A stretch of 61,210 nt of DNA, filler included, from Jimgerdemannia flammicorona (GCA_003990765.1; 3 parts of 3 records of this genome joined end to end with filler, not necessarily neighbours in it); one strand, 5' to 3'. Positions 4,644 to 30,769 are shown, counted from the whole stretch's first letter. Numbers and translations are program-made. The notes: generated from the sequence alone by a model not told the origin.

Positions 4644-5119
4644 CTTTCTTCATTTGCATTTATTATACGGAAAATGACAAAAAGGTGGCAAATTCGGGTA
4701 TGGCGGAGGTGGACACGAGGCGTATATATAGATCGATGTACATATCTGATCTTAAGGAATGCCGTCATGCCTATTTTGAAAAGTCTTCGTTTCAGCTCAC
4801 CCTTTCGGACGGTAACATACAGAACGCGAATCCGTGGCTGATTGACAAATTTGCGATTCGCGTACCCCGATCCGGCATAGACCATTCCAGGTTGTCGGAT
4901 ACGGAGAAGCTAAGTAGTCGGCGATTGGCCAATTCACTTCATTCATTTATATTTATTATGTATACAAACCAACCATAGATTTTAAATAACTGTGTATATA
5001 CGGTTGAAGAACTTCACCTCATATAAATTATGTGGAAATAAAATAGCCATATTTTACTGACAAAACAGGTTGGTATAAAGTTGTCGGCGAAGGCTATTTG
5101 TTTGAGATCTAAAACCGAT

Positions 5120-6337
5120 TTAAACATTGTCTACATGGCAAATTCTATCAAGGTGTTGACATCGAGTGCAAGACACTCCATGACATCCTTTCTTGTCCTT
5201 TCTGCATCCGAAGCACGGAGGGCTCCATTTTGTGGTGCCGATGGTAGCGTGAGCTCGACATCGCTTCTTCCTCATCAAGCACTCTTGAAATCCCTTGTAC
5301 GGAATAGGCCTGTGAGCGAAAGTGGCAGTTGTTGCGATGTTCATCTGTTGGGAAAATTTCGCGCTGAAAGATATGAGGACAATGGTGAGCTGGCAAACGT
5401 CGGCTGAATGATTGGTCCCTGCCCCGGTGTTGCATCGCCTTTTTGGAAGTTGCCAGTGTACGATTCTGATTTAAAGTAAAATTTTATGTCATCAGGGTCA
5501 TCCGTGCGCAAGATGGGGAAATAGGTCGGCGTCCGTTACGGCAAGGTCGGTGGCTTGGTTTGTAGGAAGTGCGTTAATGACGAGCGGGACGACTGTGCAT
5601 CGGTCGCACAGTGGTGATTCGTGAAGGGGAACTGCGGCATCATAAGGGTAGAAATCGGCGTCGTAGTCGTGCTCGAGCTCGAAGATGATGTGGTCGATGG
5701 GACAATCGAGGAAGGCGAGAGAGTGTTTCTGGTTTTGTCCGAGGGGAGCGACGGGCACGGCGTGCGGCTTCCGGGGATGGAATCTGGAGATGTCCTGTAA
5801 GGGACCGTGTGAAATTGGCGCAGGAACTCATGTGCTGCATTCTTCGGAGCAATTGTTTGGCCGGATGGGGCGCACGTCGAGCTCGGATAGGCGGTTGGGA
5901 GGCTGCTGGAACCGTTCGTGTGGCCGGATGAAAAGCAATGCTGGTCCGAGGGAGGTGACGGTGATGAGTGGGGCGCTTATAGTGGCGACGAAGCTGGCCG
6001 GATGGACGACAAAATAGCGGCCGGTCGGTTGGCGAAAGAAAACAAGGTTCTCGTTGGCTTTTTTGCTGAAATGGACATGGTCAAGCAATGTATAATAGGA
6101 GCGGAGAATTATTTTGGCGAGACCAGGCTGCTTCTTGAGAATACGTTCGGCGCACCTGAACAGTTCCAACACATCCACATCGATGAGAATGTCGTCCTTG
6201 CGCGGCTGGAAGACCGCGTATTCCTGATTGGCGAGCATAGGGAAAGAATGTTTGCCAGATCGTGTCAGGAGGGTCGGCGTCGGCCGGGGAGGAAGGTGGT
6301 CAGAGGCGGAAGAGCGGAGGGTGGTTGAAGGGTTCAT
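5120..6337 (-). pseudogene. Zn2Cys6-like family copy B: full length, disrupted
   Basis: MNPSTT start through CFGCRKDKKGCHGVSCTRCQHLDRIC end. Relative to copy H it has a 2-bp deletion near 5980 and a CAA>TAA stop near 5537. Confidence 0.85.
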
Positions 6338-7025
6338 GGTTGAAGAAGAGGGGGAGGCGTTGTTTCTGCTTAGGGCACGGTGTGTTCCGGAAGAGACTAA
6401 GATTAGGATAGCGCAAGAACGCGCCCGAGGAAGAGAGAGTGGGGAGCAGTGAGGAAACGTTCTTGGGGGGCCGAGAATGATACTTTTAAAACCATGGCAG
6501 GAGACTTTTGGGTTTGTCGTTTGGGTCGCGCGTCAACAGCGCAGGGGGTGGGAAGGTTGATGAGGAACAAAATTATTTGGTTAAGATGTAAGGAGGTGAG
6601 GGTATTGGCGGGGGTCTTGGGAATATGGGGTGGGGGGGAGTGGCGAAAGAGAGGGTAGACGAGCGTGGGGACAGGTTATAATTTATTATAGTTTGCCCAA
6701 ATTAAGCATGGCCTGCGGAGGCTCCCCAAAAAGCCACACACGTCACGCTTATGTCAGCCGACGATCATAAAACGTCACTTATAATTTGCGTTGATTGGTG
6801 GCAGAATTGAGTCACGTTCAACTTGGCCATTGGCAGTTCACTTTGCCCTGTTTGCTTTTCAGTATAAAACTAATCAACTATAAATTTATAATATCATACA
6901 TGTAGGGTTGAACATTTTTTACACCATAAATGGTATGTGCAAATACAAAATCATATTTTACTGAATCATTCAAGGACAAAACAAAGTTGGCGGCGAAGGC
7001 TATTTGTTTAAGATCAAGGACTGAC

Positions 7026-7284
7026 TTACATTGGCGACATGACAAAGCCTATAAAGGTGTATACATCAAGTGCAGGGCACGCCGTGACATCTTTTCTTGT
7101 CCTTTTTCCATTCAAAGCACCTCATTACCAGAGAGTTCCGTTTTGTGGTGCCGATGGTAGTGTGAGTTCGACATCTCCTCTTCCTCCTCAAACAGTCTGA
7201 CCATTTCTTGTATGGAGTAGGCCTGGAAGCGGAAGTAGTTCTGGTTGTAGAGGGCGTCTTGCTGAACGAGATTCGCGCTGAAGG
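7026..7284 (-). pseudogene. Zn2Cys6-like family copy C, 3' part
   Basis: Encodes PYKKWSDCLRRKRRCRTH...KKDKKRCHGVPCT* and is flanked by the family 3' region (6680-7025, similar to 3200-3600). Confidence 0.8.
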
Positions 7285-8250
7285 CTTGAAATCTTCCGTT
7301 TTTGAGCAAGAACGTTCTCTCACTGTTCCCCGCTCTATTTTCCTCGAGCGTGTACTTGTGTTCTCCCAATCCCCATTTCTTCCGAAACACCCCGTGCCCG
7401 AAGTTGAACCCTCCCCTCCCTCCTTCTGCAACCATGAACCCTCCAACCACCCTCCGCCCCTCCACCTCCGACCATATGCCCCCCCCCCGCCACCGCCTAA
7501 CCTCAATGATACGGTCTGGCAAAAATTCGACTCCCCCACGCTCACCAACCGGGAATTCGCAGTCTTCCAGCTGCGCATGGAGGACATCCACATCTACGAA
7601 ATTTGTTGGAAATGTTTCGGTCCACCGAGCGTCTTCTCGACGGTCCGTCTCGCCAAAATAATTTTCATCTTCTGCTACACCCTGGGTGCCCCCGTCCACT
7701 TCACCAAACAAACCAACGGCGACCGTGTTTTCTTTCGCGAGCAGCCCTGCCACTACTCCATCGTCCAACTGTCCAGCGTCGCCGCCACTATCAGCGGCCC
7801 ACACTCATCACCGTCCTCTGCCACGAACCAGCACGACTTATCATCCGACCTTGCAAGTGGATCTAGAACTCCCAACCGCCCATCCGAGCTCGACGGGCGA
7901 CCCATCCGGCCAAAGAATTGCTCCAAAGAGCGCAACCCACGAGCTCCACCACCAATTTCTCACGATCCCCTACATGACATCTCGGTATCCCATCCTCGAA
8001 AGCCGCACGCCGTCCTCGCTGCTCGCCTCGGACAAGACCAGAAACAATCTCTCGCCTCCCTCGATTGGCCTATCGACCACATCATCTTCTAAGCCGAGCA
8101 CGACTACGACGCTGACCTTTTTCCTTGTGACGCCACAGCTCTCCTTGGCAGATCTCCACTGCGCGGCCGATGCATATTCATTCCCCTCGTCATCAACGCA
8201 CTTCCCGTACACCAAGCCGCGGATCCTGCAGCAACCGTCGCCGACCTACT
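7285..8250 (+). pseudogene. Zn2Cys6-like family copy C, 5' part, inverted
   Basis: Promoter/5'UTR plus ATG at 7434 (MNPPTT..., LNDTVWQKFDSPTL) on the + strand. The upstream family sequence resumes in the original orientation at about 8275. Confidence 0.85.
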
Positions 8251-8487
8251 AATATTAATAATATAATAATAACCCCTTGGCGTACCGAATTTTGGGTTTG
8301 TGGCTAGGGTGGCGGAACTATGGGTTGCGCTTCAACCGGAACAAAATTAGTTGGGTATAGGCGAGACCACGTGAATCAGATTATGACTTGACGTCTGCCA
8401 CCTGGTGACGCAGTGAAATGGAATGTGTAATACCTGTCTAGATCCAAGTGTGTCAATGCGTGCTGGTTCAAAACTATGAACACGTAC

Positions 8488-11400
8488 CAATTTGTTTTGG
8501 ACTCCAGCTGGTGTCAGTTGCAGGAACTGCAGAAGGGGAATCTCCATCTTGGCTTCTTGGATCTTCTGCCAGGCTTCATTATAGATATCCCTGGGCATAG
8601 TCTTCAGGGTGTACTTCTTTTTGGGCTTTGAGGCAGCAGGTTCCCATTCTTCTTGTTCCATTTCTTCATCCTCTAGTAGTAACTCATTCCTCTTGGAGAC
8701 AAAAGGTGAGAGAGTCCAGGGAGGTGTTTCTACTTGCTCCTCTTCATGTTCTTCATCTTCTTCTTGGATAATTCTTCTGCTGATATTCCTGGATGGCCTT
8801 CTTATAGGTCTCTTCCTTTTCTCTGCTGGGTAGACTATTTTTCAGGTAGTAACCTTTATAGGATACAAGTCTAGGTCACTGTAGTCTTCACTGTTGCTTC
8901 TTCAAAATTTTCAACAGGGTGGACTTCAGCCTTCTTATATTGAGTGTCATTTCTTCAGTTTGGTGGTTCTGAGTCCCTTTGGTCACTTCTTTTGTTGTCA
9001 CATTCAGTGGCATAGTATCTGAATTGTCCACAGTAAAAGCATAAAACTTGGGCTCTATCTTGGACAGGGTATCTTCTTTCTTCTTACTGATAGCTCCTGT
9101 TATCTCTGGGTGGATAACCTTGGCTCCTCTGTGGTGGGTATCCTCTGTTGTCTTGATAACTCCAATTTTTGCATATAGTGAGTTTTTCAATCTGTCCAAC
9201 CAATTGGTCCAACTTGGAGCTGAGGTCTTAGATTTCACTTCTGTCCTTCTTTCCTTCTTTGGCTAGCCTTCTTTTTTCAGATCTCTCTTGTCCTTGAAGG
9301 AGTCCTTGTAGGGCTTTGACCAGGATGTCTTCTTTATCTTCTTTTTTATCATGATCACTCTAGGTAGTTCCTTGTCTGACATTAAAGAATCCTTAGACTA
9401 TATCTACTTACTCTTCAGACCTTCTGATGCCCAGAGTATAGACATGCTGGGCAATGTTTAGGGGAATTTCATTCATGAAGATCATTGGACCTATGATGTC
9501 CTGATTGGTGGCATTGAACCCAGTGGTATGCATTCTGTTCTGAATTCTTATAAATAAAGCTCTGGGCAATTCTCTAAGATTCATCTTCATTCACATGATA
9601 GATTCTTGAGCCTTGTAGCAGGTTTCAATTCTGTATATTTTTCAATAAGCCAGTAGACCATGGCTATATATTCTAGCTCATTCTCACCAGTTCTGAATGT
9701 GGGTCATTTACTGTTCAGTGGAAAATTCCTCTGGCTGGTTCTCTGAGCTGAGCCTTGTAGATGGTGATTTTTCTTTCATCTGAGAGATTCCTCAGGGCTG
9801 TGATTCCTTCAATCTCATCAAGGAATTCTCTAGGGTCTTCCTCCAGATATCCTGCAAAAGTTGGCAGTGAGGTGGCTATTTCATTGTCACTTTCTTCTGA
9901 TTCTGGTTCTGGTCTGGATTCTGATTTGAATTCTGACTCTGATTTGCTTTCTAAACTATTACTGGAGATGGGGGTGCTTGGGTATCTTGAGAATAGTATT
10001 CTGGACCTTGGATAAAGTAGAATGAGCCTAGATATTCTTATAGGAGCTACTTCCAATTCTGCAAGGGCTGGTGGTAAAGATTTAATGAGTGAGATTAGTG
10101 AGACTGATATGGGGTGTCTGGCTATAAGATCTTGGGCTTGTATAATAAGATCTTCTAGTTCTTATGCAAGTTCTTCAAGTTGTCCAATAGGGCCACCTGT
10201 GTTGTCTGGTTGATCTGGTTGGGGATTTCAGATTGTACTGGCTTCTGGTTCTGTTTGGGATCTTTCTAATACTGGGTAGTTGGCAAGTCTTGAGGTGATT
10301 ACTTCTCTTCCTGTCCAGATACTAGTAATAACTGATTCTCCTGTAGTAGCAGAGATTGGTATTATATCAAATGTATCCAGTTTGACTGTGAGTTCTTGTG
10401 AGCTGAAAAGTTATGTTGATTTGAAATCTTCCTAGTTGAGCCTCCAAATGTAACATGTCGGGCTCAATGGAGGTAAATTATAAGATTGGGGGTTGATGTA
10501 GTTTGGCTTGAGCCCCCAAAAGTAACAAAATATTCTTAGTGTTTAGTGGTATAATAGTCAAAGCTGGATATATGCAAGCAATTTGTGTGTCAATTTCCTA
10601 ATTAAGATAGTTCTCTGGATATAGCAGTGATTTGTATATCTTTCCTTCTTAGTTGACAGATAATTTCTATATAGCATAGCAATCTCCAAAAGTATGTGAT
10701 TTCTGTATGACAATCTCTTGTTTGATGTGATGATCTCTGTATAGTGCAGTGGGTTTCTTATGTATAATAGTCTGGCAATTTGGCAGATAACTCGATTTGG
10801 ATACAGATTCTTCTAAAACAATAGTTTGGGAATAAAGGATGGTGCAGACTCTTCCTGAAATGGTTTACTGGGAATTGTACTGGTGGCAATTTCTCTGAAT
10901 CAGGCTCACCAGGAATAAACTAATAACTCAGATAGTATGGATAACTTGGATATCATGGATTACTTAGATAACTCAGATAACTCGAAAATGACAGATTCTT
11001 GGCAAGTTACATCAAAGACTGGCTTTGTTTGTACAGGGTTATATTGTAGACTGACTCCACTATGAAGTTGCATCAGATAGACTGGCTTGTGGCAAGAATA
11101 GCAGTTCTCTGGAAAGGCAGGTTTCTCTTCAAAAGAGTAGTAAAGTTCTTTCTTGAACTTGGCAGTTTCTTCAGGCTTATCTAGTAAGTAAACCCAAATA
11201 TAGTAGCTTATTCCTTAAGCAGCAGATTACTCAAATGACAGTGAAGTTCTTTCTTGAACTTGGCAGCAAACTTCAGACTTATCTAGTAAGTGAACCAAGG
11301 CTTTGTATTGGAAAGTGGACTGGAGTGGAAATAAGGAGACCAATACTCAATCTTTAGAGACTTCTTTGGTTTATATTTCAATTCAGAATGAGGTTTATTC

Positions 11401-11702
11401 ACTCTTGTCTCTAGGGTATTTTATACATTGTGGTTGCTATCTGGTTACTATGTGGTTAACTATAGATTTACTACTTATGGCAATTTGTAAAGGTTTAGCA
11501 CAAGTGTATAGATCTGGCCCAGGTATATAGGTCCTGTACAGATATACCTTATCTGGTAGTCTGGCTATTTATATAGTTTTCTACAGCAATAGTTGCTGTA
11601 TCTGGTTACTATACTATGTATTTATATCATCTTGCTAAGTTACTAATTGTTCACATTATCTGGCTAAGTTTCAATTCAGGTGGTATATTTTAATTTGTTA
11701 CA
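8488..11702 (-). mobile_element. Gypsy family A 5' fragment: LTR + PBS + gag, truncated before protease
   Basis: LTR 10449-11702 (TGTAACA...TGTTACA), then PBS TTTGGAGGCTCAACTAGG and gag LPTFAGYLEEDPREFLDEIEG. Colinear with 46502-48525. Confidence 0.9.
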
Positions 11703-13235
11703 ATATGTAGAGTATAAATAAAAAGCAAATTTCTCCTTCTTAGAAAGGATGATTGTCAGGCTTATTTTTTGCCTAGATTATTTTCCATTCAGACTTTTTT
11801 ATAAATAATTATTACATATTAAGGAATAATAGAGATGACTTGGATAAAAATAATTAGCCTAAATTAAGTATATAAAATAATCAGCCTACTAGATATTATA
11901 CAAGGCCCCATTACTTATGTAAAAACAAATAAAATATCATGAACAAGAAAATAGCTCTTTCAGAATAAATCAAACAATAGAACTATTAATAAAAAGATCT
12001 ATATTTATTACAATTTTTGTAAAATATATATAGCAATACAATGATTTAGTAAAAAGACAGAATACCATAAATGAATGAAAACCAAAGTGATTAAAAAATA
12101 TTCAAAATCCAAGTAATTATCACAAATCCAAAAAAATTGGCTGAAACTTTCTCTTATTTCAAAAGTTTATAAATTTTCCAGAAGCCCTATCCTAATTAAG
12201 AGTCATATAAACAATTTAGATATTGTGGGGCAGAATTTTATAATATGAATACAGTTTTTGTTTCCACATAAACAATAGTATTCTCTTATATGGTAAAGTT
12301 CTTAAGCTAGAACAAGTGGCTAACACAACCAATAGAACTTTATAGCAAAGAAAATGTAATTATTTTTTTAAGATATTTATGGAAAGGTATCTGAATTAGA
12401 TTAACTGTCAGCCTACCAGCAGAAGTACTTACTATTCCAGTATTTGTATAATGTTTTAATTGTATTTTGATAAATAAAATAGAGATAGTCATAGTATTTC
12501 AAATTCTATTCTGAAGTGATCCAGTAAATATTTCATTTTTCTTCCAGATATGGAACTTTTGTATTTGTGATTCTTTTTAACATTCTGGTATAGTATGAGG
12601 ATGTTAATTATATAGGTAATACTACTTGATTTTTACTACATATACTAATATTATCACATCTTTCTGACTTCTTATCATCCATGTCACAATTATCAGTTTA
12701 GTAATTATATAGACTTTCTTCATTTGTATTTATTTTACAGAAAATGACCCAAAAGTAGCAAGGTCAGATATGTTATAAGGTATATATACAGATCAATGCA
12801 TATATTCAATCTTAAGGATATGCTATCATAACTATTTTGAGAAGTCTTTATTTCAGCTCACCCTTTTGGTTGCTACAGAATGTAAATCTGTAGCTGATTG
12901 ACAAATTTGAGATATACATACCTTGATTCAGCATAAGCTATTCTATATTGTCAGACAAGAAGAAGCTAGGTAGATTATTAATACATTATATATAACTATA
13001 TGAGAGTAAGTTCCAATTTGGACAATAAATTATCACACAGCATCACATTCAGATAGTATTATTAATGTGAGAATTCAATTTATTTATTTATATTTATTAC
13101 ATATACAAAACAGCAAATAACTGTATATATAGTTTTGACAAACTTTATATTATAAAAAAAAGTCATATTTTACTGACAAAATAAATTAGTAGAAAGTTGT
13201 CAGCAAAGACTATTTGTTTGTAATTAAAAACCAAT

Positions 13236-13640
13236 TTGAATATTATCTAAATGACAAATTCTGTCAAGGTTTTTACATCAAGTATAAGATACTCTATAAT
13301 ATTCTTTCTTGTCCTTTCTGTATCCAAAGTACCTTATTCTCAGAAGGTTTCATTTTGTAATATCAATAGTAGCATAAGCTCAACATCATCTCTTTCTCAT
13401 TAAGCAGCCTGGATATATCTTATATAAAATAGGTCTGAAAGTGAAAATGAGTAGTTGAGATAAGAATCTGTTGAGCAAATTTTATACTGAAAGAAGATGG
13501 AAATAATAGTGAGCTGGTAAATATCAGCTGAATGCTTGGTCTATATTCTGTTGTTGTATTGTCTTTTTTGATATTATTAGTATATAGTTTAATTTAAAAT
13601 AAAATTACATATCATCAGGATTATCTATATATAAGATAGA
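13236..13640 (-). pseudogene. Zn2Cys6-like family copy D (3' half), hypermutated
   Basis: Aligns to 5115-5515 with C>T/G>A changes. Flank 12715-13230 aligns to 4645-5115. Confidence 0.75.
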
Positions 13641-13770
13641 GCTATAATCTTAAATATTTAACTCACTAGAGTTCTATTATAGAATGGCAGAAATTTGGGA
13701 ATAACATGTGATATGGCTTAGAATGGTTATTAATAATAGAGAAAAAATTTTACTATCAACTTTCAGTCTG

Positions 13771-13811
<41 letters not shown>

Positions 13812-14334
13812 AACTTTCAGTCTATCTCCAAGTATATAATTGATATATTTCTATTATGAAAAATACTAAGCTAAAATCATAATATAAATTTAATATATAT
13901 CTTTATAATACTCTTGATAAAATTGTTTAAGACTTACTTTTATCACTTTTTAAATATAATTTTTTAATCATAATTTTTTTATTTTTAAAGAATTATTTAT
14001 ATACTAAAACTAAATTTTAAGTAATTCTCAGTTATTACAACTAAGTTAAAATAAAAAATTTTTTTAAAAAAAAATAACTTATTAGTTTATTAGATTAAAT
14101 TGAGTTATATATAATTTATTAACTTAATATTATTAATAGTTTACTTTACTCATTTATATTTTATTTTGTTTTTAGTATAAAAGAAATTAATTAATAATTT
14201 AAAATAATTATATAAATAATATATATTGAGTTATAGATTTTTTAATATATTATAAATAGTATATAAATTAAAGATTTAGATATATTATAAGAGAGTTAAT
14301 AGTAAACTCTATTTGTTTGAGATCTAGAACTAAT

Positions 14335-14715
14335 TTATATATTATTAATATAATAAAGTCTATTAAGATATTTTTATTAAGTATAAAGAATACTCTCTGA
14401 TATTTTTATATCTAAATTACTTCTTTTTAAAAGAGTCCTATTTTGTAATACTGATAGTAATATAAACTTAATATCCTTTCTTTTTTCTCAAATAGTCTAA
14501 ATATTTATTATATAAAATAGATCTAGAAATAAATTTAATGTTAATTGTAAAGAATATCTACTATGTATATGAGATTTGTATTGACAAAAGTTAAGAATAA
14601 TTGTAATCCAATAAATATTTTCAAAAATATTACTTTTAATAATAGTATAATATTATCTTTTTGAAAGTTATCAGTATATACTTCTGAGTCTATTTTTAGA
14701 AATATAATATATAAA
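14335..14715 (-). pseudogene. Zn2Cys6-like family copy E (3' half), extremely hypermutated
   Basis: TATTTGTTTGAGATCTAG, TTTTGTAATACTGATAGTA and TTTTGAAAGTTATCAGTATA correspond to family motifs TTTTGTGGTGCCGATGGTA and TTTTGGAAGTTGCCAGTGTA. Confidence 0.65.
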
Positions 14716-14724
14716 ACAATAAAA

Positions 14725-14933
14725 ATATATCCAAATTTAATGATCTTCAACTTATTAGATTTATTATATATAGGAGAATATAACTAACTAAAGATTATTA
14801 AATTTAGTTATATATTCATCAAGTTATTATATTTGAAAAATAGAATTCAAATTAAATTTTAAATTGAATTAGCCTTTGATTCAATTTGAATCAAATTGAA
14901 TTGAACCTTTAATTTAATTTATTAGAAGTACTA
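14725..14933. mobile_element. hAT/MITE terminal remnant (second copy at 44763-44971)
   Basis: About 200 bp similar to 44763-44971. Both end ...AATTTATT(AGA/GAG)AGTACTA, the reverse complement of a TAGTACT TIR. Confidence 0.55.
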
Positions 14934-15215
14934 GATATATCTAATAAGTATAGTATATCTGATAAATATAGGTATATCTTTAAGATAAAATTAATAAATC
15001 TGATTTGGTACCTTATTAATTATAAGTAGTAGTATATATAAATAACTAGGTATGAGTAACTATACTATGCTAAGAATTCATATTATTTAGTTATACTATA
15101 TTATTTACTTATTATAATATATAAAATAAAAAAGCATATTTTACTAAATTGATTAATAATAAGTAAGATTAGTAGTTAGTAGTAAAGGCTATTTTTTGAG
15201 ATCTAGGACTGACTT

Positions 15216-17223
15216 TATTAAGATGATAACTTGATATATATGTAGATATATAACTTTATACTATATACTATTTTAATAGTTTTATGTTATTTATCAGTAA
15301 TATGTGAAATATATAACTTACACAATTTGAATAAACTGCTTTTTCTATTAGTCATAATGAGATTATGAGCCCTGACTTATAATAAAGATTATGAGTCCTG
15401 GTTAGCAGCTAAAAACTTCTCTAATATATGTATATACTATATTATAAGATATATAAGTATACCAAGTATAAGTGCTCAGTAATACAAAATAAAGTTCTAT
15501 TATAAGTACAGATAAATATGATCATTACTAGCTGAGGTGGTGAAGAAGTCTGCCAAGATAGCAATATTGAAGTTCTCTGTGATAACAAAAGGTAATTATA
15601 AAAAAATATCTACTAGTACTCTAAATGGATCAGTATGATTCAAATCTAATTTGAATAGAACAGATTTGAATCTGATTCAAATCCAGTCATATGGAATTCG
15701 AATTAGATTCAAATTAATTTAAATCAGATTTAAATCAATTCAAATTAGATTCTATTTTGGAAAAAATAAAAATTAACCAAAACAATCAATATAAATCGCC
15801 TAATATCTCTATAAATATTTATCTAAATTCAATATAACAATATGAGCTGTATTTAAATAATTAAGAGCTTTTGAGAAATATACAGTTTATTTAATTTGGA
15901 CCAGTATTTATAGAGAAAATCAATATAAACCATTGTAGTATATGGCCTAACTATATATGACCTATGGATATTTTGTTAATTTTTTCTATAAATACTGGTC
16001 CAAATTTAATGAAATTTATATTAAATATAGCATACTTTGTTTATAAATTTGGATGAATATTTGAAGATATTGTGCTTTTTGTCTAGGATTTATATGATAT
16101 AAATGTAGTGATTTCAAATTTGGCAATTTGAATTGATCATATGATGATATAAATTGACTCATTTAGAGCACTAATGTCTGCTCAGATGTTAGAGGCAAGT
16201 ATGATAATAAAGATCTCCCAGATAATAAATGATGTCCTCTCTAGTGTTCAAGGTAATTACAAAGTCCTCCCCAGTGTTTGAAGCAATTATGAAGCCCTCT
16301 CAAGTGATTGAGGTAATTACAACAGGTTCTCTCTAGTGGTAGAGATGATTATAACAAAGATATCTACTCAGATAGTTGTGACAATTATAACAATAAGGAT
16401 GCCAGACAATAAGATTGATGAAGTCAGTATATGTATATGAGGTCAGTAACAAGATCAATATGGACAAACCTGAACCCAAGCCCAGTATAGAAAATATTTT
16501 TCGACTAGTGACAAATGAAAAGTCTTTAACCAGGTCTACCAACTACTGAAAGGACAATAACTATTACTACTAAAAGGGCAAAAATCTCTAAAATAACAAC
16601 TGATAAGAGAGTAACTACTAAAGATACTATAGAATAGCAATGATAGCAAATTAAGCAAGAGTGATATATAGTTATCTAGCTTCTTTTAATGCTAACTAGT
16701 GATCTCAATAAACAGTTACTTAGAATATATCTTCTATAAGCAGTTATATAGATAATACAATATATCAGTATTTGACAAAGTTGAGAAGTTGATCATAAGA
16801 CTTTTCAGACTATTAAAAGTCTTATATTGCATATACATTTCACATCTGCATTATATATTGGTTACATCTCTTATCTATGAGCAGATATTTCAGAACATAA
16901 TTTGAACTATAAAAAATTCCATATATATAGGATTTTATAGTTGTATTTGAGTTATATGTAGTTCTAGTTTTTGCATGTATTATGCATCACTTTTTTATTC
17001 TAGATTGCATTCCATTTTTTTGGGGTACAGTTGGTATTCTTTTTTTTTTTGGTTACATATCTCGTTGAGCAGGAGTGTTGGGAATATGTAGGCACGTGAC
17101 TTTACGCCATTCCAACAGTTTTACGTCATTCATCAGTAACACGTGAAATACCTGACTTACACAATTTGAATAAACTGCTTCTTCTGTTCGTCACAACAAG
17201 GTTATGAGCCCCGACCTACAACA
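15216..17223 (+). mobile_element. Non-autonomous Ty1/Copia-type element with short LTRs, inserted in the 3' end of family copy G
   Basis: LTRs 15216-15384 and 17076-17223 (TGTTG...CAACA). 5-bp TSD GACTT at 15211-15215 and 17224-17228. PBS-like AAGATTATGAGTCC (Copia/Ty5 GGTTATGAGCCC type) after the 5' LTR. PPT TTGAGCAGGAG before the 3' LTR. Confidence 0.85.
15614..16173. mobile_element. hAT-type MITE nested in the Copia derivative
   Basis: TIR TAGTACTCTAAATG / CATTTAGAGCACTA. 8-bp TSD ATATCTAC / ATGTCTGC (two G/A differences). Confidence 0.8.
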
Positions 17224-17788
17224 GACTTGCACATTGGCGACATGAGAAAACCTATCAAGGTGTTTACATCGAGTGTAGGGCACTCCGTGACATCCTATCT
17301 TATCTTTTTTTGCATCCAAAGCACCTCATTCCCGAGGGTTCGGTTTTGTGGTGCCGATGGTTGCGTGAGATCGACATCTCCTCTTCCCGTGTCGGTTCGG
17401 GGCAGAGGACAGTGATGAGTGTGGGGCGCTGATAGTGGCGGCGGCGCTGGGCAGATGGACGACGGAGTGGCGGCAGGTCTGCTCGCGCAAGAAAGCATGG
17501 TCGTCATTGGTTTATTTGCTCAAGCGGACGCGGGCGCCCAGGGTTTAGCTGACGCAGAAAACTGTTTTGGCGAGACGGTCCGTGGCGTACCGGAACAGTT
17601 CCAACAAATCCTCGTAGATGAGGACGCCATCCATGCGCAGCTGGAAGACTACGTATTCCCGATTGGCGAGCGTGGGGGAGTCGAATTTTTGCCAGACCGT
17701 GTCATTGAGGTTCGGCGGTAGCGGGGAGGCATGTGGTCGGAGGTGGAGGGGTAGAGGTGGAGGGGCGGTGGGAGGTTGAAGGATTCAT
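17224..17788 (-). pseudogene. Zn2Cys6-like family copy G with large internal deletion
   Basis: ATG at 17788 and N-terminal domain, then a jump near 17390 directly into the C-terminal Cys region. Its 3' flank continues at 15130-15215 beyond the Copia insertion. Confidence 0.8.
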
Positions 17789-18434
17789 GGTTGCAGAGGG
17801 GTGGTGTTCAGCTTAGGGCACGGGGTGCTTCGGAAGAAAGGGGGATTGGGAGAGCACAAGGACACGCTCCGTGAAACGTGAATGGGGAGCAGTGAGAGAA
17901 CGTTCTTGATCGAAAAAGAAGACTTCAAACCTGGGCTACCGAATTTTGGGTTTGTGGCATGCGTGGCGGAACGGTGACTGGCTCAAAACTATGAACGCGT
18001 GCCACTTCTGAACTGTCAACGTGCTCCCGTTATTGAACTAAAGATGGACCATACCCCTTGTGTATTTACAACCTGGAACCAATGCTTATGTTTGATGATT
18101 TCAATATATAGTCTGATATATTTGCAATCAAATTGGCCTACGTCGTTTGTAACCGAACGTGTGTACAATGTTGCGGATTGTTCGTTGGTTGAATTGAATC
18201 GAGTCACGTTCAACCCGTCGCCTGGGTGCCATTGGAAATGCACTTTGCTCACATATATTTATTTTCTTCTTTCAATTTGCAAACTATTCAACTAAAGTTT
18301 TGAAATAATTGTATATGTATCATACACATAAAAGATATGTGCAAATAAAAAAGCTTTATTTTGCTGAATCAATCAACGCCAAAACAGGTCGGCAGAAGTT
18401 GACAGCGAATATTTGTTTGAGACCTAGGACCAAC

Positions 18435-19661
18435 TTACACATTGTCAACATGGCAAATACTACCAAGGTGTATACATCGAGTGCAAGGTATTCTGTGACA
18501 CCCTTTCTTGTCCTTTTTGCATCCAAAGCACCTCATTCCCGGAGGGTTCCGTTTTGTGGTGTCGATGTTAGCGTGAACGCGACATCGGTTCTTCCGTCTA
18601 AAACAACCTGGACAACTCTTGTATGGAATAAGCCCGGAAACAATAGTGGCACCGGTGGCGGTGGGCGACTGTTGGGCGACATTCGCGCTGAAAGGAGATA
18701 GGGATGATGGTGGACTGGCAAATGTCGGTTGAAAAATCGGTCCTGTCCCCGATGTGGCATCGCCTTTTTGAAAGTTACCAGCGTACGCTTCGGAGTTGAA
18801 GTAAAATGGCACGGCATGAGGGTTATCTATGCCCAAAATGGACAGGGAGGTCGGCGTTGGTTGCTGCAGGGTCGGTGGCTTGGTGTGCGGGAAGTGCGTT
18901 GATGACGAAGAGGACGACTGTGCGCCGGCCGAGTAGTGGTGATTCGTGAAGGAGAGCTGCGGCGTCATGAGGAGAGAGGTCGGCGTCGTAGTCTTGCTCG
19001 AGTTCGAAGTTGATGTGGTCGATGTGGTCGATGGGATAATCGATGGAGGCGAGAGAGTGTTTCCGGTTTTGTCCAAAGGGAGCGACGGGGACGGGGTACG
19101 GCTTCCGGGGATGGAATCCGGAGAAGTCCGGTAGGGGACCGTGAGAAATTGGCACGGGAACTCATGGGATGCGTCCTTTGGAGCGATTGGTTGGCCGGAT
19201 GGGGCGCACGTCGAGTTCGGATGAGCAGTCGGGAGGCTACTAGATCCGCTCGTGTGGCCGGATGAGAAGCAGTGCCGGTTTGGGGGAGATGACGGTGAAG
19301 AGTGTGGGGCACTGATAGTGGCGACGACGCTGGCCGGAAGGACGGCGGTGTAGCGGCCGGTCGGCTCGCGAAAGAGAACACAGTTCTCATTGGTTTGTTT
19401 GCTGAAGTGGACGTGGTCACGCAATGTGGAATAGAAACGGGGAGGAGGCTGCTTCTTGAGCAGGCGATTGGCGGACACGAACAGTTCCAACAAATTTTTG
19501 TCGTTGAAGATGTCCTCCGGGCGCAGCTGGATGACCGTGTATTCCTGATTGGCGAGCGTTGGAGAATCGGGTGTTTGCCAGACCGTGTCATTGAGGTTCG
19601 GCCTTGGCGGGGGAGGCAGGTGGTCAGAGGTGGAGGAGTGGAAGGTGGTTGAAGGGTTCAT
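18435..19661 (-). CDS. Putative transcription factor: unknown N-terminal domain, S/T/P-rich linker, C-terminal CX2CX6CX2H + Zn(II)2Cys6-like cluster (copy H, intact)
   Basis: Uninterrupted 408-aa ORF ending CPGCFRRKNRCRVH...CFGCKKDKKGCHRIPCTRCIHLGSIC (CX2CX6CX4CX2CX6C). CpG-rich. A possible terminal intron follows (GTAAGT overlapping the stop). Confidence 0.75.
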   Translation of the reverse strand: MNPSTTFHSSTSDHLPPPPRPNLNDTVWQTPDSPTLANQEYTVIQLRPEDIFNDKNLLELFVSANRLLKKQPPPRFYSTLRDHVHFSKQTNENCVLFREPTGRYTAVLPASVVATISAPHSSPSSPPNRHCFSSGHTSGSSSLPTAHPNSTCAPSGQPIAPKDASHEFPCQFLTVPYRTSPDSIPGSRTPSPSLPLDKTGNTLSPPSIIPSTTSTTSTSNSSKTTTPTSLLMTPQLSFTNHHYSAGAQSSSSSSTHFPHTKPPTLQQPTPTSLSILGIDNPHAVPFYFNSEAYAGNFQKGDATSGTGPIFQPTFASPPSSLSPFSANVAQQSPTATGATIVSGLIPYKSCPGCFRRKNRCRVHANIDTTKRNPPGMRCFGCKKDKKGCHRIPCTRCIHLGSICHVDNV

Positions 19662-20344
19662 GGTTTAAGAGGGGGGATTGTTTCAGCTTAGGGCACGGGG
19701 TGTTCGTAAGAAACGGTGATTTGGAGAGGGCAAGGAAGCGTTTGATTTTAAGAGAGCAGAGAGAGAACGGTCTCGGGGGCCGGAGAAACATTTTACGTCT
19801 GTCAAATTCACGTGACTACCAATAGTATCGCATGAAAAGCGCTAAAGTAGGAATAGCAATAGGTTTAACGAGTCACGGCTGTGTAACCTTTTTTCTCCCC
19901 AAATGTATTATTGTTCTTCTTCTGTCGCTTTGCTGCAATTCTGCAATTAGCGACATCTCGTTTTCGCACCTCCCTGTTTACTGTATTATATCTAGCGGGT
20001 TCGCTTATGCCGAACTGACCATTCGCCACGCAATGTCGATATTCCGACTTGCTGCGATATTCGCCAAAATAAATCAAACATGTATACAACGTAGTTTCGA
20101 GGGGCACGAGAGTTGGATATGCTAAACCTCGTGGCAAAAGTCGTTTAAATTTTTATGAGACTTCCGCCTCTCCCCAAGTATATAACTGGGCTGTCCCTAT
20201 TATCTTAGCAATACAAAAAGTTGACTATATATATATATATATATATATACCGGGTAGAACCTTAATCTGAAGTCAATCACTTTGAGTATTATTGGTAATA
20301 AATTACCATTTGCCCTGCAAGACTGTAAGAATCTCTGCTAAAAA

Positions 20345-20444
20345 NNNNNNNNNNNNNNNNNNNNNNNNNNNNNNNNNNNNNNNNNNNNTTAATTAATTAA
20401 NNNNNNNNNNNNNNNNNNNNNNNNNNNNNNNNNNNNNNNNNNNN
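20345..20444. other. Artificial contig linker N44-TTAATTAATTAA-N44
   Basis: Exactly 100 bp with a six-frame stop linker. Confidence 0.97.
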
Positions 20445-20880
20445 CACACCCAGTCTATTACCTATTTCTACCCAAAAGTCCCCCAATACCTCACACTCCC
20501 CCAGCCAATGTTCCGGCATCTGCACAAATCCCCCATCTTGCCCTACATTGTAACACTCCTCACAATCAAATTGGCCACCATCCACCAGATGCCCAGTGCG
20601 AAAATTCAGCATGACATTTCTCCGCAGCATTCGCCACCACACCACCCAGTACTTGGGAGGAAGCCATCTCTGCACCTCAGCACTCCAAGACCAGATACCC
20701 GCCCAGTCCCACTCCTCGCCGATCCCAGCCCCCTGCCAGCCACTCAGCCTAAGATCCTGGCCAAGACCCTGCTGACACTCCACTCCATCTCCAAGATTAA
20801 ATGTTTCAATTGGAGCACCCCCCAGCAGCAGTCCATCTCATCTCCACATATCAGGTCCCCACACCCCCTCCCCCTCATTG
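20445..20880 (-). mobile_element. LINE ORF2 C-terminal fragment
   Basis: WLPPKYWVVWW...CEECYNVG...MPEHWLGECE, homologous to 40200-40460. Confidence 0.85.
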
Positions 20881-21385: not shown

Positions 21386-22101
21386 AAGTTCTTTAAGCTC
21401 GGGTTCAATTGATAATGAGGTCAGTTTAATTAAGGCCCCACTACCCCCTACATATTGAATACAAACTGACATTGTTTTCAATGTCACTAATGGCTTGCTG
21501 AATTCTGATGGTCTCAAGATCATTGGCCCAGCATGCACACCTTGACTATATACAGATTACATGCACCATGGGGGTCCCCATCATTTTTTTCAGTTCTATC
21601 ATTGTAGCTAAACCACCTGTCAACTATCCTACCAAACTTGGATGCGTTCGACGGGCAGAGTGGGATATTCTGGCAGATAGGGGTATTGATGCAGACGTAT
21701 GCAGTCACACAGGGACACATAGTGCGCAGGCTGTGGTTCTGTTATGTGGAGGTGTTGTCATCTCCTAGAGACTGCGTTTGATACCGTTTGTAGACAATGA
21801 AATGGCCACTTGGCGAGAGTGTTTTTCCAGAAGGTGCTTTTTTTTTTTTTGGCGCCGACTGCAAGTCTCTTCATCGTCGTCCAATAATATGTCGATATCA
21901 CATTTCGGAGGAGGTTTCCCAAATATCTTTTCCCCGTCTCATGCTGAGAAATCTTCTCTGGCTTGCGGTGTTGACCAGCATCATGCCATTTTCGTTATGA
22001 TAAGCCGACATGTCCTCGTCATTTAAATTTTCTGCGGCCCCTGGTCACACGTGGATTGTGCTGCAGGAATTTCACTCTTTGTGCTACCTCCTTCTCGTCA
22101 A

Positions 22102-23230
22102 AATGCCAATCCTAACCCTCAACCGCACTGACCTCCCCGGAACCCTCGACATCAACTACAAAACTGGCCAAGAGTCAGTTGCGTGGCTTAGGGAGCAAGC
22201 CCGTGACGCCATCACTGTCCTCTCACCTGGCCTTTGTCGACTCACAGGTCGTCGACGACGATAACGGCATGCCCCCCGAATACTACACCATCAGCAAGGA
22301 GTGCTGGCTTATCTGCCCCGTCTTCGGGGAATTGGGTGATATGACGGAAATGACCGCCTCTACTAGTCGCTACTGATCCCCGAAATGGTGGAGCAGGTAA
22401 AGCGCATCATCAAAGAAATGTATGTGGTGCTGGAGGATCAGCAGCGGCTGCTATTCGCCAGGCGTCAATTAGATGAAGGACACTCGCTCTCTGACTACAA
22501 CATCTCACTGGGGAGCAGATTACATCTTGTGCTCAGACTGAGGGGCGGCGCCCAAAATTTGCCGACTTGTCTAATGAGAGCAGGCTCCGGGAGCAAGCGT
22601 GGTCCAGGTCGGCGCCCAGCTGGCGCACCGCAACCGATGGATTGAACGAGGAAGGTAGGTTATATCGTTTTCCTGTTCTCACCTCCTTTCATCTTATAGG
22701 CAAACTCCTAATCTTGCGTTTACCCTCCATCTATCCAAGGCACATACACAAACTCCGCCTGTGCCGCTCATGGACGCCGCGTTATCATCAAATGGGGCAT
22801 GCGTAACTTTGACTTTCTCTACGAATCCCACAAATGCCGCTGTCCGATATGCCGTATGCTCGTCGAGCCCATCACATGCGCCTTCAGCAATACCTGGTGG
22901 ACCTTCCGCGGACTGAAGAAGCTCGCGAACGCGCCCCCAGAGTACGTACAGGGTCCCTGGCGGCACGCCGGGATGCGTACCACGCCTTTGACGAGACTCA
23001 GAGTGGCGTCGTCGGGTGGTGAGACTTAAGATCCTTGTAAATTCACGGAATCCCGAGGGCATGTGTTCCGTGTGCTTTGAGGAATCAGGACTCCAGGGGA
23101 AGGGTGTCGGTAGTTGTAGTCATAGTTTACATCCCGCGTGCTGGAATAAGTGGAGGAATGTGCAGGGGTGGAGTTGGGGATACAGTGTCCATTGTGCCGT
23201 GAGCTGGACAAGAATAAGTGATTGTTTGGA
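22102..23230 (+). pseudogene. Ubiquitin-like domain + Cys-rich domain + RING-like gene, frameshifted
   Basis: [37 protein letters not shown], then [20 protein letters not shown], intron 22654-22739, CRCPIC..TCAFSNTWW, and CSVC..CSHSLHPACW. Several 1-bp frameshifts. Confidence 0.75.
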
Positions 23231-25052
23231 AAGCGAGGAGGGTTTGTGGATGGAGAAGGTTCGGCGGGTTTGTTGTAACAGAAAATTGCCTAGACGACAC
23301 GTCCATGGGACCTTTGGCTTCCCAGGATTCGTTTTTGGCTTCTTTTAGTTCTTGACTTCAAAATTATATCCTAGCACTTCGTAATTACTCTCTTCTTTTT
23401 TTTCTTCTTCAATTTCTATCATGTGTCCAATAAATTGTCTTTGTGACAAAATCCCAAATCTCCACTACCTTGGCGTTTTGTGCACTTTGCTGCATCGCCA
23501 AATCGATTAGCATTCCGTCTGAAGGAGCTTCTTTGCAGCCACGGTTCCGAACACCCACCCACCCCATGTGGTTACGACCTGCATTTCATCTGGGTATCTC
23601 CAATCTGTCCCGTCCTGTCCCGCTCAAGCTGCACCGCCTGAACGTTGCCACCTCTCTTCGTCGTTCCTTCGACGGGCTCAAGACCGACCCGTCATCCTCA
23701 ATGTCCGCGATTACGACACGTTGCATAAAATGCGTACGTCGCAGTCACCCGCGATGATCCCTACCATAAATTAGTGTGCCAGCGCGTGCTCGTATACGTA
23801 GACTACTGCCAGCGGAATTTGGATGCAGTCTTCTGTTGCGTTACCTATCAGCCGTGCAAATCCGGGATCTTGCTGGAACACATCTGAATTTCCGGCACAA
23901 ATTAGAAGCTGACATACGCAATAAGCGGGAACGTAGGTGCCAATCGTATATATCGGCGATGCGAGAGTTGTATAAGATGCGATAAGTCGTTTTCGTTCTG
24001 GAATTCAAGCCTGTGGTCGTTGTGGGATTTGTGAGATCATCGCTGCTTGATGGTGGGACTGAACGAAAATACCACCACTCTTTGTACACAAATAAGATAC
24101 CCCCTGGGCATCTTTCCTGGTTGGTGATTCCTCTGGAGGAGATATGTTATGGCGTACACCATTGGCAAGCCAGTTCACCCGCCAGACCGGCATTCACAGC
24201 CATCGTTCAGCATCCACATTTGGGTTCACCATTCTAATAATATATCGCCACCCTTCAACTTGTACTAATACTCCAAGATTCTGTAGAAATAAATAACAGG
24301 TTGAATACTTAGCACAAGCACCGACGTCTGCCCGCACTTCGAGGTGGTTAGGGCTCTACCTCACAATGCAGGTTCCAAGTGAGATGGAGGGTCTATCTCG
24401 ACGTAATTCTTATTGGTTTCTTGCTAAAACGTAGGTCCTCAAAGAACATTTTTACTGCTTGCCATAACATAGTTTATATATATTTAACCTCACCCTGGCA
24501 CAGGCCAATCCAAAAATAATTAAAACTGTCGATATGATATCGGAGATAATGATAATTCTTAATAATAATAATAATAATAATAATACATACTCTATAAAAT
24601 GTTTTTTATGAAACATATACATATTGAATTGTAAATTGAATTGATGGCAAATTTTTTCCCAACGATCCCCCCCCCCCTCTTCCCTCGGAACTGCCCATAT
24701 ACTATTAGCGTTTCGTTCGTGAAGCTGATTTTGGGCATCGTCAGAGGACTTATTGATATTAAAAGTCAGCGGGGCGTGGGCATATGGCGACGATATGAAG
24801 GTTCAGTTTCACAATTATTCTATCAAGATGTCCACCAAGATGCAATTGGAGTTCACTCCATCGGATGACTAAACCCTAATGTAGTGGCGGATCCAAACTC
24901 CGGAGCGAGGACGGAATTCCCAATCTGAGAGTACGACCTCAGAAGACTCAAATCTAAACGCATTCGCGGGCCGAGACACTTACAAACCTGTCGATTCCTA
25001 AACCGTCCTTGGCACCCTTTTCTCCTTTTCCAAAGGCATCGCTTCACACTCT

Positions 25053-26768
25053 ATGGGTCAATCTCTGTCCAGATTCGCGCTCAAGCACAAGGAAGACCGC
25101 TGCGAAAATCCTGTCCCAGAAGTAACATCCAATGACAAGCCGCCTACCAAATACTCGCACGGGGACCCAATTCCCCAAGACTCCAAGGTCATCGATGGTC
25201 TCATTTTCAAAAATTCTGGGAGCGTTTACCCGCTACCGAATGACAAGTCTGAGTATGGCCGCTTGAAAAACCTGCACTATCTTGTCCGGTGAGCGATTTG
25301 TCGGCGGCTAGTTTGCGTTCCACTGCGACATGATGTTTTTGTATTGAAAACCCGGCCGTTAAGAGTGTTTTGTGAGTTGGTTGGGACGAGGTGTAACTAT
25401 AGAGGCGTTGACATAAAGACTACAAAAACTGACTAACTTTCACATCCGGAAATTAGCTATATCTTCCAGAGGTAATAATTGATATTTAAACACCCCATAT
25501 AGAATGTATGCTTTGATAACCATTATTTATTCATACCCGATCCTTCTGTTTGTAGTAATTACCAAGCACCTGTCACGGAAGACCTGAAACGCGGAATAAA
25601 AGTTCTCGACGCTGGGTGAGGCCTCCTATCATTTATTCCACCAGTGACTAACTCCGCACGTACTAATAGGAATCTTTCTTCACCTATCAGCTGCGGCACC
25701 GGCGTCTGGGCTATCGTAAGTACCCTGCCCAATATCCTGCTCACATATCAATTATTCTACCCGACTGACCCCCCTTCCCACTTCCCCGCCTCGCCTTCAA
25801 CCACTACAAAGGAGCTCGCTACTGAGTTTCCGAATTCGACCTTCATTGGCACCGACATTACGAATGTTTTCGCCGGGTCGTTGGAAACCGTGCCTTCCAA
25901 CTGTACTTTCCTCGAGGCCGACACGACCAAGCGCCTGCCATTTGATGACAACACATTCGACTACGTATTCCAGCGGTTTCTGAATGCGTGTTTCGCGAAA
26001 GCAACGTGGCCTATTGTTATCAAAGAGCTAATAAGAGTGTGCAAGCCTGGTGGTTTTGTGGAGCTGCGTAAGTGTTTTTTATTTACTTATTTTATTTATC
26101 TTCTTTTCCTCATACGACGTTTGCTAGCTTCTCATGCTCACTTTCCCAACGTTTTTAATCCCTTCAACACGCAGTCGAAAGCACATTCGCGCACGACGGC
26201 GGTCCGGCGATATCAAAGCATTCTGAATTATGTACGTATTCTCCTGTCTTATCTAGCGTTTCATTGTTACATATCACTCACCACATATGATATTGCCTTA
26301 CCTGGCCAACGCTTCCCGCAGTGGCAACCCTCTTCTCCCTCCGCGGTGTCGACGTGACCATTTTCAAGACCCAGGAGTATGTCATCAACGCGGGCCTGGT
26401 CGACGTTCAAAGCTTCTACACGCCCTGGCGGCTCAACTGGGGCCCCGACGAGAAACTTGGCGAGCTGAACGCACAGGTTTGTGCTCCAGTCCAGTTAACT
26501 CTCTCCTTTCAATTCCCTTTGCGCTATTAAAGACTCAATCCTCCCCTTCCTTCAATAGAATTACATGGCAGCGGTTCGCAGCGTCCGCGCAGCTACCAGC
26601 ATAGCCCTTGGCATCGGCGACGACGAGTACGACGAGGTTGAGCGTGGATGCGAAGCCGAGCTACTCGTCCCGGGTGTCGAATACAAGGCAACCAAGACCC
26701 TCTTCTCGCACAATGGTCGAAAGCCCTTCCCCGTCGCAGACGACGCCCAGCCCGAGATACACACATAG
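25053..26768 (+). CDS. Class I SAM-dependent methyltransferase (LaeA-like/Methyltransf_23-25 type), 8 exons
   Basis: Exons 25053-25288, 25457-25471, 25556-25615, 25691-25715, 25812-26067, 26175-26231, 26322-26476 and 26559-26768, all GT-AG and in frame. Motifs YPLPNDKSEYGRL, VLDAGCGTGVWAIELATEFP, LPFDDNTFDYVFQRFL and ELIRVCKPGGFVEL. Confidence 0.93.
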
Positions 26769-28086
26769 CCCCGCTTTATGTGTATGGCCCCTTGCGAAGG
26801 ACCAAATACATAGAGTATTGCCCCGGTCGACGTCACGAGATACGCCTTTTCATTATAAAGAAAAAAATTATGAGAGCAATCATAAGCCTTAAGATGTTTT
26901 ATACTGGTGACAGCCAGAAATGTTGTGATAATAAAACTGTGCTCTATACTCTACTAAAAAAAATGCTGCACATGCAATATTCACTCTGTTCACGAGTTCG
27001 TTACTGGACAACGTCTCGACAGCTGTTTTAGTTCTTCTTTAATGTCATTTTTCTATCGGAAGTTTAAAAAGCGTCCATGGCTATTCCATTGGATGCCGCC
27101 ATTCTGTTAGCTCATTGGTGAAGCAAAATAATATATATTGTATCCAATTAGATCAATTAGATCTAATTTGATTTGATTTAATTTGCTGAAAATACTAAAT
27201 ATATTTATTAAACTAGAATATAATATAGCCAAATTGATTATTAAAATAAATAAAAAAATCTAAATTTAAACTTTATAAAAATTTAATTAAATTTAACTAT
27301 ATTAAATTATAGAATAAATATTATATATTATAATATATAATTTATATTGTAACAGTTGTTCTGAATTAAAAATACCAATAAGAGAGATATTTGATTATAG
27401 TACTTAATTTAATTTTCAATATAGTATAGCATTATAGTTAGTAGTTTTCTGATCTTATAGTTGTAAAATTTGTATAATTATATAAAAAGTACATCTGTAA
27501 GAAACTTATTATTATACATATTGTACAGATAAACAGACCTCACAACTGTATAAAATGACTTCTAGAAAAAAAAAATTTTAACTTAGCTATCTTATAGCTA
27601 GTAAGCTTATATAAATATCTCTAGTATCTAGAGTAAATAAATCTCAGATCAAAATAGTTTAAAAGTAAAGAAACAAGAGAACTAATAAGCCTATAGAAAG
27701 ATATACTTTGAACTCACCCACCCTTATATCTGAGAACTCTGAGGAGTTAAAAAAGATCAAGAATTTAAGATAAAGAAATCTGCTATATTTCTAAAATTGT
27801 ATATCTGCTATATTACAACTTGGTACCTATTAGCTGAAGATTTAAGATAAATTTCTCACTTTTAAGCTAAACAATAAATAACTGCTATAAAAAATAAAAT
27901 AAAATAAAATAAAATAAATAACTACTTTTATCTGAATATATACTTAAATCAAATTAAGATATCTAGATAAGATAGATATGAGACTACCAGTAGTTTATAG
28001 ATATATCTCTGATGAGTCAATTATTATCTTTCTTGATGATTTTAAATAATATACTATAGTAAGAACTCTATCATCTATATAATAAG

Positions 28087-28302: not shown

Positions 28303-28329
28303 ATAATAAGTAACTTTTATACTATTCAA

Positions 28330-30695: not shown

Positions 30696-30769
<74 letters not shown>

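Follow-up and report, generated by a model that had tools for sequence, protein, structure and literature searches.

One-sided C:G-to-T:A hypermutation ending within an LTR element of an Endogonales fungus, pointing to a region-confined RIP-like mutator

Introduction

RIP-type hypermutation is treated as a trait of Dikarya, chiefly of ascomycetes, and in Neurospora it needs a repeat length of roughly 400 bp. C>T bias in the transposons of Dikarya is described as carrying species-specific dinucleotide signatures (PMC4352252). In Zymoseptoria tritici, a Dim2-dependent mitotic C>T mutator is reported to be independent of meiosis and confined to methylated transposon regions (PMC8016269). Two kingdom-wide screens place repeat-directed signatures only in ascomycete classes (PMC12543289) and RIP-proficient taxa almost only in Ascomycetes (10.1101/2025.06.16.659975). 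An index-based RIP-like signal outside Dikarya has been described, with stated caveats, in Zoophthora radicans (Entomophthorales; PMC11105155).

Regarding the lineages closer to the DNA analysed here, arbuscular mycorrhizal fungi are described as keeping DNMT1, DNMT2, DNMT5, DIM-2, and RID, and sister Mucoromycota clades as having lost DNMT5 and RID (PMC8298701). RIP signatures were not detected in Mucoromycotina according to one study (PMC8647823), and Phycomyces, a species of this group, is reported to possess a DIM-2 homologue and a DNMT1-class enzyme (PMC13297926). The literature that we searched, which did not extend to the original Endogonales genome paper, connected neither Jimgerdemannia nor Endogonales to RIP, to cytosine methylation, or to AT-rich blocks, and mentioned these names only in passing. 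Here, we describe a locus in which the two LTRs of a single element, and the two parts of the gene copy that it splits, differ by strongly directional C:G-to-T:A mutation with a sharp edge. This pattern suggests a RIP-like mutator restricted to one region, in a lineage for which the searched literature holds no earlier report.

Host lineage and gene content

The window, i.e., the whole stretch of DNA that was analysed, comprised 61,210 bases in three stretches of ~20.3 kb, joined by N44-TTAATTAATTAA-N44 linkers at 20345–20444 and 40780–40879. Because of these linkers, repeats common to different stretches are not necessarily genomic neighbours; the LTR element and the AT-rich block at 8484–17062 lie entirely within the first ~20.3 kb stretch. 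A 409-aa ORF (18435–19664, minus strand) showed two matches at E ≤ 0.001 among the 8000 candidates scored, both hypothetical proteins of Jimgerdemannia flammicorona (58 and 65% identity). A SAM-methyltransferase exon (25620–26357) showed 21 matches, with Endogone sp. as the best named source (59–68% identity), followed by Glomeromycotina (43–54%). As the closest named proteins were those of Jimgerdemannia and Endogone, the host belongs to Endogonales, an early-diverging order (Mucoromycotina) outside Dikarya; this taxonomy check agrees with an earlier sequence-only reading of the same DNA, which had proposed a probably non-Dikarya host. The genome of J. flammicorona is reported to measure 240 Mb and to consist of >77% repeats (PMC10386755).

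The methyltransferase exon lies in a GC-rich, CpG-normal gene island (21500–27000) that carries a class I SAM-methyltransferase with introns (Methyltransf_25/11), which is of the small-molecule type and not a DNA methylase. The island also includes a fragment of a ubiquitin-like ORF (22367–22645). No DNMT gene was found within the 61,210-base window, and the tRNA scan returned 0 genes.

Structure of the LTR element

The element consists of a 5′ LTR (15216–15384), an internal region (15385–17075), and a 3′ LTR (17076–17223), all on the plus strand. It has the hallmarks of an LTR retrotransposon, namely direct terminal repeats, TG...CA termini (intact in the 3′ copy), and a target-site duplication within the usual 4–6 bp, GACTT, which is a perfect 5-bp match between 15211–15215 and 17224–17228 (plus strand). 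A purine-rich tract, GAGCAGGAG, lies directly upstream of the 3′ LTR. No clear primer-binding site could be read from the sequence abutting the 5′ LTR, which is itself mutated.

The internal region of this small element is AT-rich with few isolated CpGs, its CpG-free runs being interrupted near 15699–15797 and at 16502. The 1.69-kb interior showed no gag/pol capacity and contained no ORF of at least 120 aa, so the element is non-autonomous or degraded. BLAST within the 61 kb window returned only the pair of LTRs and no further copy of LTR or interior, and an exact scan of metagenome contigs with a 26-nt block common to both LTRs gave 0 matches. Among four 30-bp tandem units at 16234–16358, 11 variable columns held transitions only, 3 were mixed, and 0 held transversions only. 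Since they vary mostly by transitions, the interior of the element has been mutated too.

Substitutions between the two LTRs

The mechanism of LTR retrotransposition makes both LTRs identical at insertion. The flanks of this element are contiguous in the alignment of the surrounding gene family and carry the same GACTT, which means that the two LTRs represent a single insertion and started out identical. They no longer resemble each other in composition: the 5′ LTR has a GC content of 0.21 and 0 CpGs, and the 3′ LTR has a GC content of 0.41 and 6 CpGs. In a transition-tolerant global alignment (148 columns), C or G in the 3′ LTR faced T or A in the 5′ LTR at 30 sites, corresponding to 30 of the 61 C/G sites, with 1 reverse difference and 2 transversions (binomial p = 3e-8). 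The 3′ LTR could thus have undergone a C/G>T/A change at one site at most. C:G>T:A changes accounted for 30/33 LTR substitutions, a near-exclusive share of the kind expected of RIP. When aligned locally (138 columns), the pair showed 26 directional, 1 reverse, and 2 transversion differences. Both strands were affected: C>T occurred at 20/36 C sites and G>A at 10/25 G sites, without a significant strand difference (p = 0.30).

The mutated fractions by context in the 5′ LTR were 16/25 for CpA, 7/11 for CpG, 5/11 for CpC, and 2/12 for CpT. Hence, non-CpG contexts account for 23 of the 30 changes, and the LTR pair does not show the CpG-only loss of the 5mC type. The sequence-only reading had stated that nearly every substitution in the 5′ LTR runs one way, that CpG, CpA, CpC, and CpT contexts are all hit, and that the 3′ LTR, 1.7 kb away, keeps its CpGs. 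The counts above uphold each of these statements, and the four strings that it cited are all present as given.

To obtain a background rate, the 2 transversions in 148 columns were scaled by the ratio of C/G>T/A changes to transversions in the GC-rich gene copies described below. Approximately 0.012 changes per C/G site were expected in one LTR lineage and 0.68 were observed, i.e., a ~58-fold excess, with a range of 16–478 because the background rests on 2 events. The hypermutation postdates the insertion of the element.

Several smaller features of the pair were also recorded. Within the 5′ LTR, 21/32 C/G sites were mutated in the first half and 9/27 in the second, and strand-run tests for clustering were not significant in the LTR, nor in the three mutated gene copies of the next section (copy A left stub, B, and C). 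A 26-nt block, ACTTACACAATTTGAATAAACTGCTT (15316–15341 and 17155–17180), is the same in both LTRs despite several CpA/TpG sites. The 5′ LTR also carries insertions of 14 bp and 7 bp. The 7-bp insertion (15260–15273) is a tandem copy of TATACTA, the mutated form of TACGCCA in the 3′ LTR. As the inserted copy already carries the mutated form, this duplication postdates the hypermutation.

Polarity and position dependence in the flanking gene family

As the LTRs lack an outgroup, the flanking gene family was used for polarity. The family forms a tandem and inverted cluster (3204–8248, 12714–14760, and 17224–19740), and its only two database relatives are both from Jimgerdemannia. Copy D (18171–19740, minus strand) is intact, GC-rich, and CpG-normal, contains the 409-aa ORF at 18435–19664, and served as the reference. 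Its protein is Ser/Pro/Thr-rich, without a Pfam hit, and shows a C-terminal CX2CX6C...CX2CX6C cysteine pattern, which we take to recall a Zn2Cys6 cluster. The element splits copy A at the position of copy D's stop codon, leaving a left stub (15050–15215, minus strand) and a right part (17224–17932, minus strand), the latter without a long ORF and shortened, compared with copy D, by a 676-bp deletion.

For each AT-rich copy, the ancestral state was taken from the majority among five GC-rich copies, and each GC-rich copy was set against the other four. Conversion of ancestral C/G to T/A reached 141/218 sites (65%) in copy B (14150–14760, minus strand; GC 0.17), 112/247 (45%) in copy C (12714–13700, minus strand), and 23/48 (48%) in the left stub of copy A. 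The corresponding counts in the GC-rich copies were 24/189, 21/190, 28/167, 28/192, and 5/76 (7–17%), the last being the right part of copy A (aligned part 17224–17400). T/A>C/G changes amounted to only 4–8% in the AT-rich copies, and transversions to 7–16%. As the AT-rich copies lost C/G with few reverse changes, they represent the derived condition, C:G having been replaced by T:A. In the control, pairs of GC-rich copies were symmetric (74 vs 82, 44 vs 42, 53 vs 52, and 30 vs 20), with transitions about as frequent as transversions. The pooled context order was CpG and CpA, followed by CpC and then CpT.

The same gene copy is thus mutated to the left of the insertion and not to its right (23/48 vs 5/76, p = 2e-7). 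Whether DNA is mutated thus depends on where it lies and not on its sequence, in line with the domain restriction that the sequence-only reading had claimed. A 32-bp patch at 15184–15215, next to the insertion, looked unmutated and was dropped as a feature, since it is largely explained by many CpT-context sites.

Transversions separate copies C and B at 17.3% of sites, compared with 8–16% among the GC-rich copies and 2/148 between the LTRs, and hence these two copies were not recent duplicates. Provided that their mutation coincided in time with that of the LTR, they would by then have been too different to pair. Copy E (4870–5560), the intact closest relative of C, lies 8 kb away and shows 8 reverse sites vs 88 in C.

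The AT-rich, nearly CpG-free block and its edges

The mutated copies and the 5′ LTR lie in a nearly CpG-free, AT-rich block (8484–17062), which is tiled by CpG-free runs of at least 400 bp with few CpGs between them. Its left edge at 8484 is 5 bp ahead of a Ty3-like retrotransposon fragment (8488–10623) that matches 46299–48524, an interval belonging to a larger element whose RT-RNase H domain lies at 41417–41908. Its right edge, as read from one assembly, falls at ~17022–17076 according to the GC change point, the first CpG, and the clean 3′ LTR: the change point is at 17061 (support 17022–17177), and a 560-bp CpG-free run ends at 17062, with CpGs resuming at 17063. The sharp boundary at about 17060 that had been proposed earlier is therefore correct to within ~50 bp. 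Beyond it, CpGs are retained in the unconstrained 3′ LTR and in GC-rich intergenic DNA (18000–18435).

Other such stretches occur at 27098–35149, 40716–49672, and 55508–60791, where single CpG-free runs extend over 4.7–5.5 kb (~67–134 CpGs expected, 0 seen). The AT-rich blocks are rich in transposons and without long ORFs, with GC down to 0.15–0.30, and pairs of transposon copies inside them differ nearly always by transitions (e.g., 73 transitions vs 3 transversions). Of 25 AT-rich, CpG-poor 1-kb windows, 0 passed the three-index rule of the classical RIP indices. The mean TpA/ApT of these 25 windows was 1.05 and the mean (CpA+TpG)/(ApC+GpT) was 1.13; the composite RIP index exceeded 0 in 10 of them and 1 in none. 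The CpA preference of RIP, with high TpA/ApT and low (CpA+TpG)/(ApC+GpT), was accordingly not seen, and CpG loss was at least as high as CpA loss.

Comparison with known systems

The locus shares with RIP in Neurospora and other Pezizomycotina the near-exclusive C:G>T:A change on both strands and the sharp-edged, GC-poor transposon blocks beside CpG-normal gene regions. It differs in that the host belongs to Endogonales and not to Dikarya, that CpG and CpA precede CpC and CpT in place of a CpA preference, that the classical indices are silent, and that diverged paralogues and single members of repeat pairs are mutated. With the Dim2-dependent mutator of Zymoseptoria, the locus would share a target defined by domain and not by pairing. 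In that system, however, >98% of changes are reported at CpA and CpG is spared (PMC8016269), whereas at the present locus the loss at CpG equals or exceeds that at CpA.

CpG decay of methylated transposons as reported for Basidiomycota and for other fungi with DNMT1/DNMT5 resembles the window in the transposon CpG o/e of 0–0.4, in the TpG/CpA excess, and in a milder, CpG-led repeat pair described below (PMC4352252; PMC13297926). Such decay differs from the deeper tier, in which 23/30 LTR changes and most of the changes in copies B and C are non-CpG and GC falls to 0.15–0.30. The Zoophthora radicans signal rests on composition indices in another phylum, whereas the present case rests on polarised alignments at one locus where the indices are silent (PMC11105155). 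Judging from one 61-kb window, the hypermutation operates in the manner of RIP or of the Dim2 mutator, but without the CpA preference and index signal of RIP, and it is not restricted to CpG as plain methylation decay would be.

Possible explanations

The reading we prefer, and to which we assign about an even chance, is that a C>T mutator acted only inside a silenced chromatin domain, which transposons had seeded and which probably carried cytosine methylation. First, a non-autonomous LTR element of small size would have entered the 3′ end of one copy in a tandem gene family restricted to Endogonales. After this insertion, a C:G-to-T:A mutator would have acted from the Ty3-like element at 8.5 kb to ~17.05 kb, covering the diverged gene copies as well as the 5′ LTR and the element interior, and stopping within ~50 bp of the 3′ LTR. 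Its target would be a silenced domain seeded by transposons, probably densely methylated at CpG and non-CpG cytosines by an enzyme of the DNMT1/DIM-2 class, with C>T change arising through enzyme-assisted or spontaneous deamination. The divergence between C and B, the sparing of copy E, and the absence of strand clustering together favour such a positional target. So do the contrast between the two parts of copy A, the long CpG-free runs with their sharp ends, and the position of the left edge next to a transposon; the reports of DIM-2 and DNMT1-class enzymes in Mucoromycotina (PMC13297926) and of the Zymoseptoria mutator (PMC8016269) speak for the reading as a whole. Against this domain mutator, a LINE-like element in the window is CpG-depleted yet not AT-rich, so not every transposon was hit. 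In addition, the one Mucoromycotina methylome quoted in a review (Phycomyces) shows mainly CG methylation, a poor fit with equal loss at CpA and CpG (PMC7862722).

Homology-triggered mutation of the RIP type would account for the locus if the ~8.5–17.0 kb interval, or the element minus its 3′ LTR, were duplicated elsewhere and only the shared length were mutated, leaving a sharp edge; we regard this as unlikely, though deserving of real weight. Neurospora RIP gives sharp edges at the ends of homology, and a segmental duplication ending near 17.0 kb would produce a one-sided sharp edge under ordinary RIP as well. Near-exclusive C:G>T:A change on both strands, reaching 45–65% of sites, and the almost transition-only transposon pairs in the AT-rich blocks (73 vs 3) are likewise what RIP would yield, and a closer paralogue or an 8.5–17.0 kb duplicate beyond the 61 kb would restore this reading. 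The earlier argument that RIP should strike both LTRs has little force: with lengths of 148–169 bp, below the RIP minimum of ~400 bp, a spared 3′ LTR is a weak argument against RIP. Against this reading, BLAST of the LTRs and the interior found no partner copy in the 61 kb, old paralogues and diverged single stubs are mutated as hard as transposons, and neither a CpA preference nor any window passing the three indices (0/25) was found. One-sided pairs, moreover, occur at least three times in the window (the LTRs, copy E vs copy C, and the repeats at 55104 vs 60778). Gene content, as given in one review, points both ways, since arbuscular mycorrhizal fungi retain a RID-type gene but sister Mucoromycota clades lost RID and DNMT5 (PMC8298701).

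An improbable explanation is that the element and both its flanks once shared a single state and that the right side was later overwritten, through gene conversion or a crossover, by an unmutated allele or duplicate of this locus, or that the assembly joins two haplotypes. The inner end of the 3′ LTR does provide a structural landmark close to the edge, and genomes of this group are reported to come from field-collected fruiting bodies, so that mixed genotypes are possible (PMC10386755). However, the flanks are contiguous in the family alignment with the same target-site duplication, so only an unmutated version of this very insertion locus could have acted as donor, which would itself imply locus- or allele-specific hypermutation; the unmutated state also continues beyond the LTR for 3 kb to the segment end. 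Slow AT-biased decay of the ordinary kind, in old DNA free of constraint and without a special mutator, would suit AT-rich blocks with many transposons and no long ORFs, but we consider it highly improbable because it is contradicted by the LTR clock (2 transversions and 1 reverse change vs 30 directional changes, a ~58-fold excess) and by the persistence of CpGs in the unconstrained 3′ LTR and at 18000–18435. One-sided clusters between LTRs are how cDNA editing was detected in vertebrates. An APOBEC-like deaminase acting on retrotransposon cDNA before integration is scarcely credible here, as the neighbouring host DNA (the left stub of copy A, and copies B and C) is as heavily mutated as the element, and C>T and G>A occur unclustered on the same strand, in place of a strand-specific pattern confined to the element.

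Significance

Returning to the domain-confined mutator, we tentatively extend it to a broader proposal, which we consider possible but rather doubtful: Endogonales may possess an active C-to-T genome defence aimed at transposon-seeded silent chromatin and not at paired duplicates. Such a defence would act in all dinucleotide contexts and build isochore-like AT blocks in a lineage described as lacking RID. Because their indices assume CpA preference, kingdom-wide surveys would have missed it. A polarised, internally dated case in Endogonales would either push such a defence before Dikarya or show its re-origin without RID. The failure of the composition indices to flag any of the 25 windows illustrates that heavy C>T hypermutation can escape them, and the LTR-pair test, which is applicable genome-wide, could separate chromatin-aimed from homology-aimed mutation. 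The process would also bear on the shaping and annotation of very large, repeat-rich genomes.

A second one-sided pair and milder CpG-led decay

A further one-sided pair consists of inverted repeats at 55104–55535 (plus strand) and 60778–61210 (minus strand), which differ over 432 columns by 45 vs 2 transitions and 9 transversions (p = 1.6e-11). The mutated arm, 55104–55535, has decayed mostly at CpG, with 31/69 CpG, 6/30 CpA, 8/87 CpC, and 0/27 CpT sites changed; in this tier the loss is led by CpG, as in 5mC-driven decay. The unmutated arm has a GC content of 0.50 and a CpG o/e of ~1, and lies at the edge of the CpG-free run at 55508–60791. The interior between the arms is CpG-free and matches the Ty3-like element at 40896–43043, and the arms may themselves form the ends of some larger element; the right arm is cut off by the end of the window. 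Both arms are built of ~33 bp units (GGGTCGGGTTAAAGACGGGTGACGTATAATTCC-like), which also occur at 49696–50012.

The LINE-like element (35150–40700) has a GC content of 0.53 and a CpG o/e of 0.2–0.4, with RVT_1 at 38437–39240 and its long ORFs all on the plus strand. This milder, CpG-led decay fits cytosine methylation of transposons, and CpG-led decay typical of methylated transposons coexists in the window with the deeper all-context decay. The coding strand of the LINE-like element is very G-rich, with 40% G against 14% C. A fragment showing 70% identity to it occurs in reverse orientation at 20472–20870.

Short, AT-rich palindromic repeats with CAAATTTGAAT-like motifs were observed at 864–1060, 14726–14936, 15638–15760, and 44763–44974, all in AT-rich blocks, with 84.6% identity between the copies at 14726–14936 and 44763–44974. 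They look like MITEs, and one of them is nested inside the LTR element.
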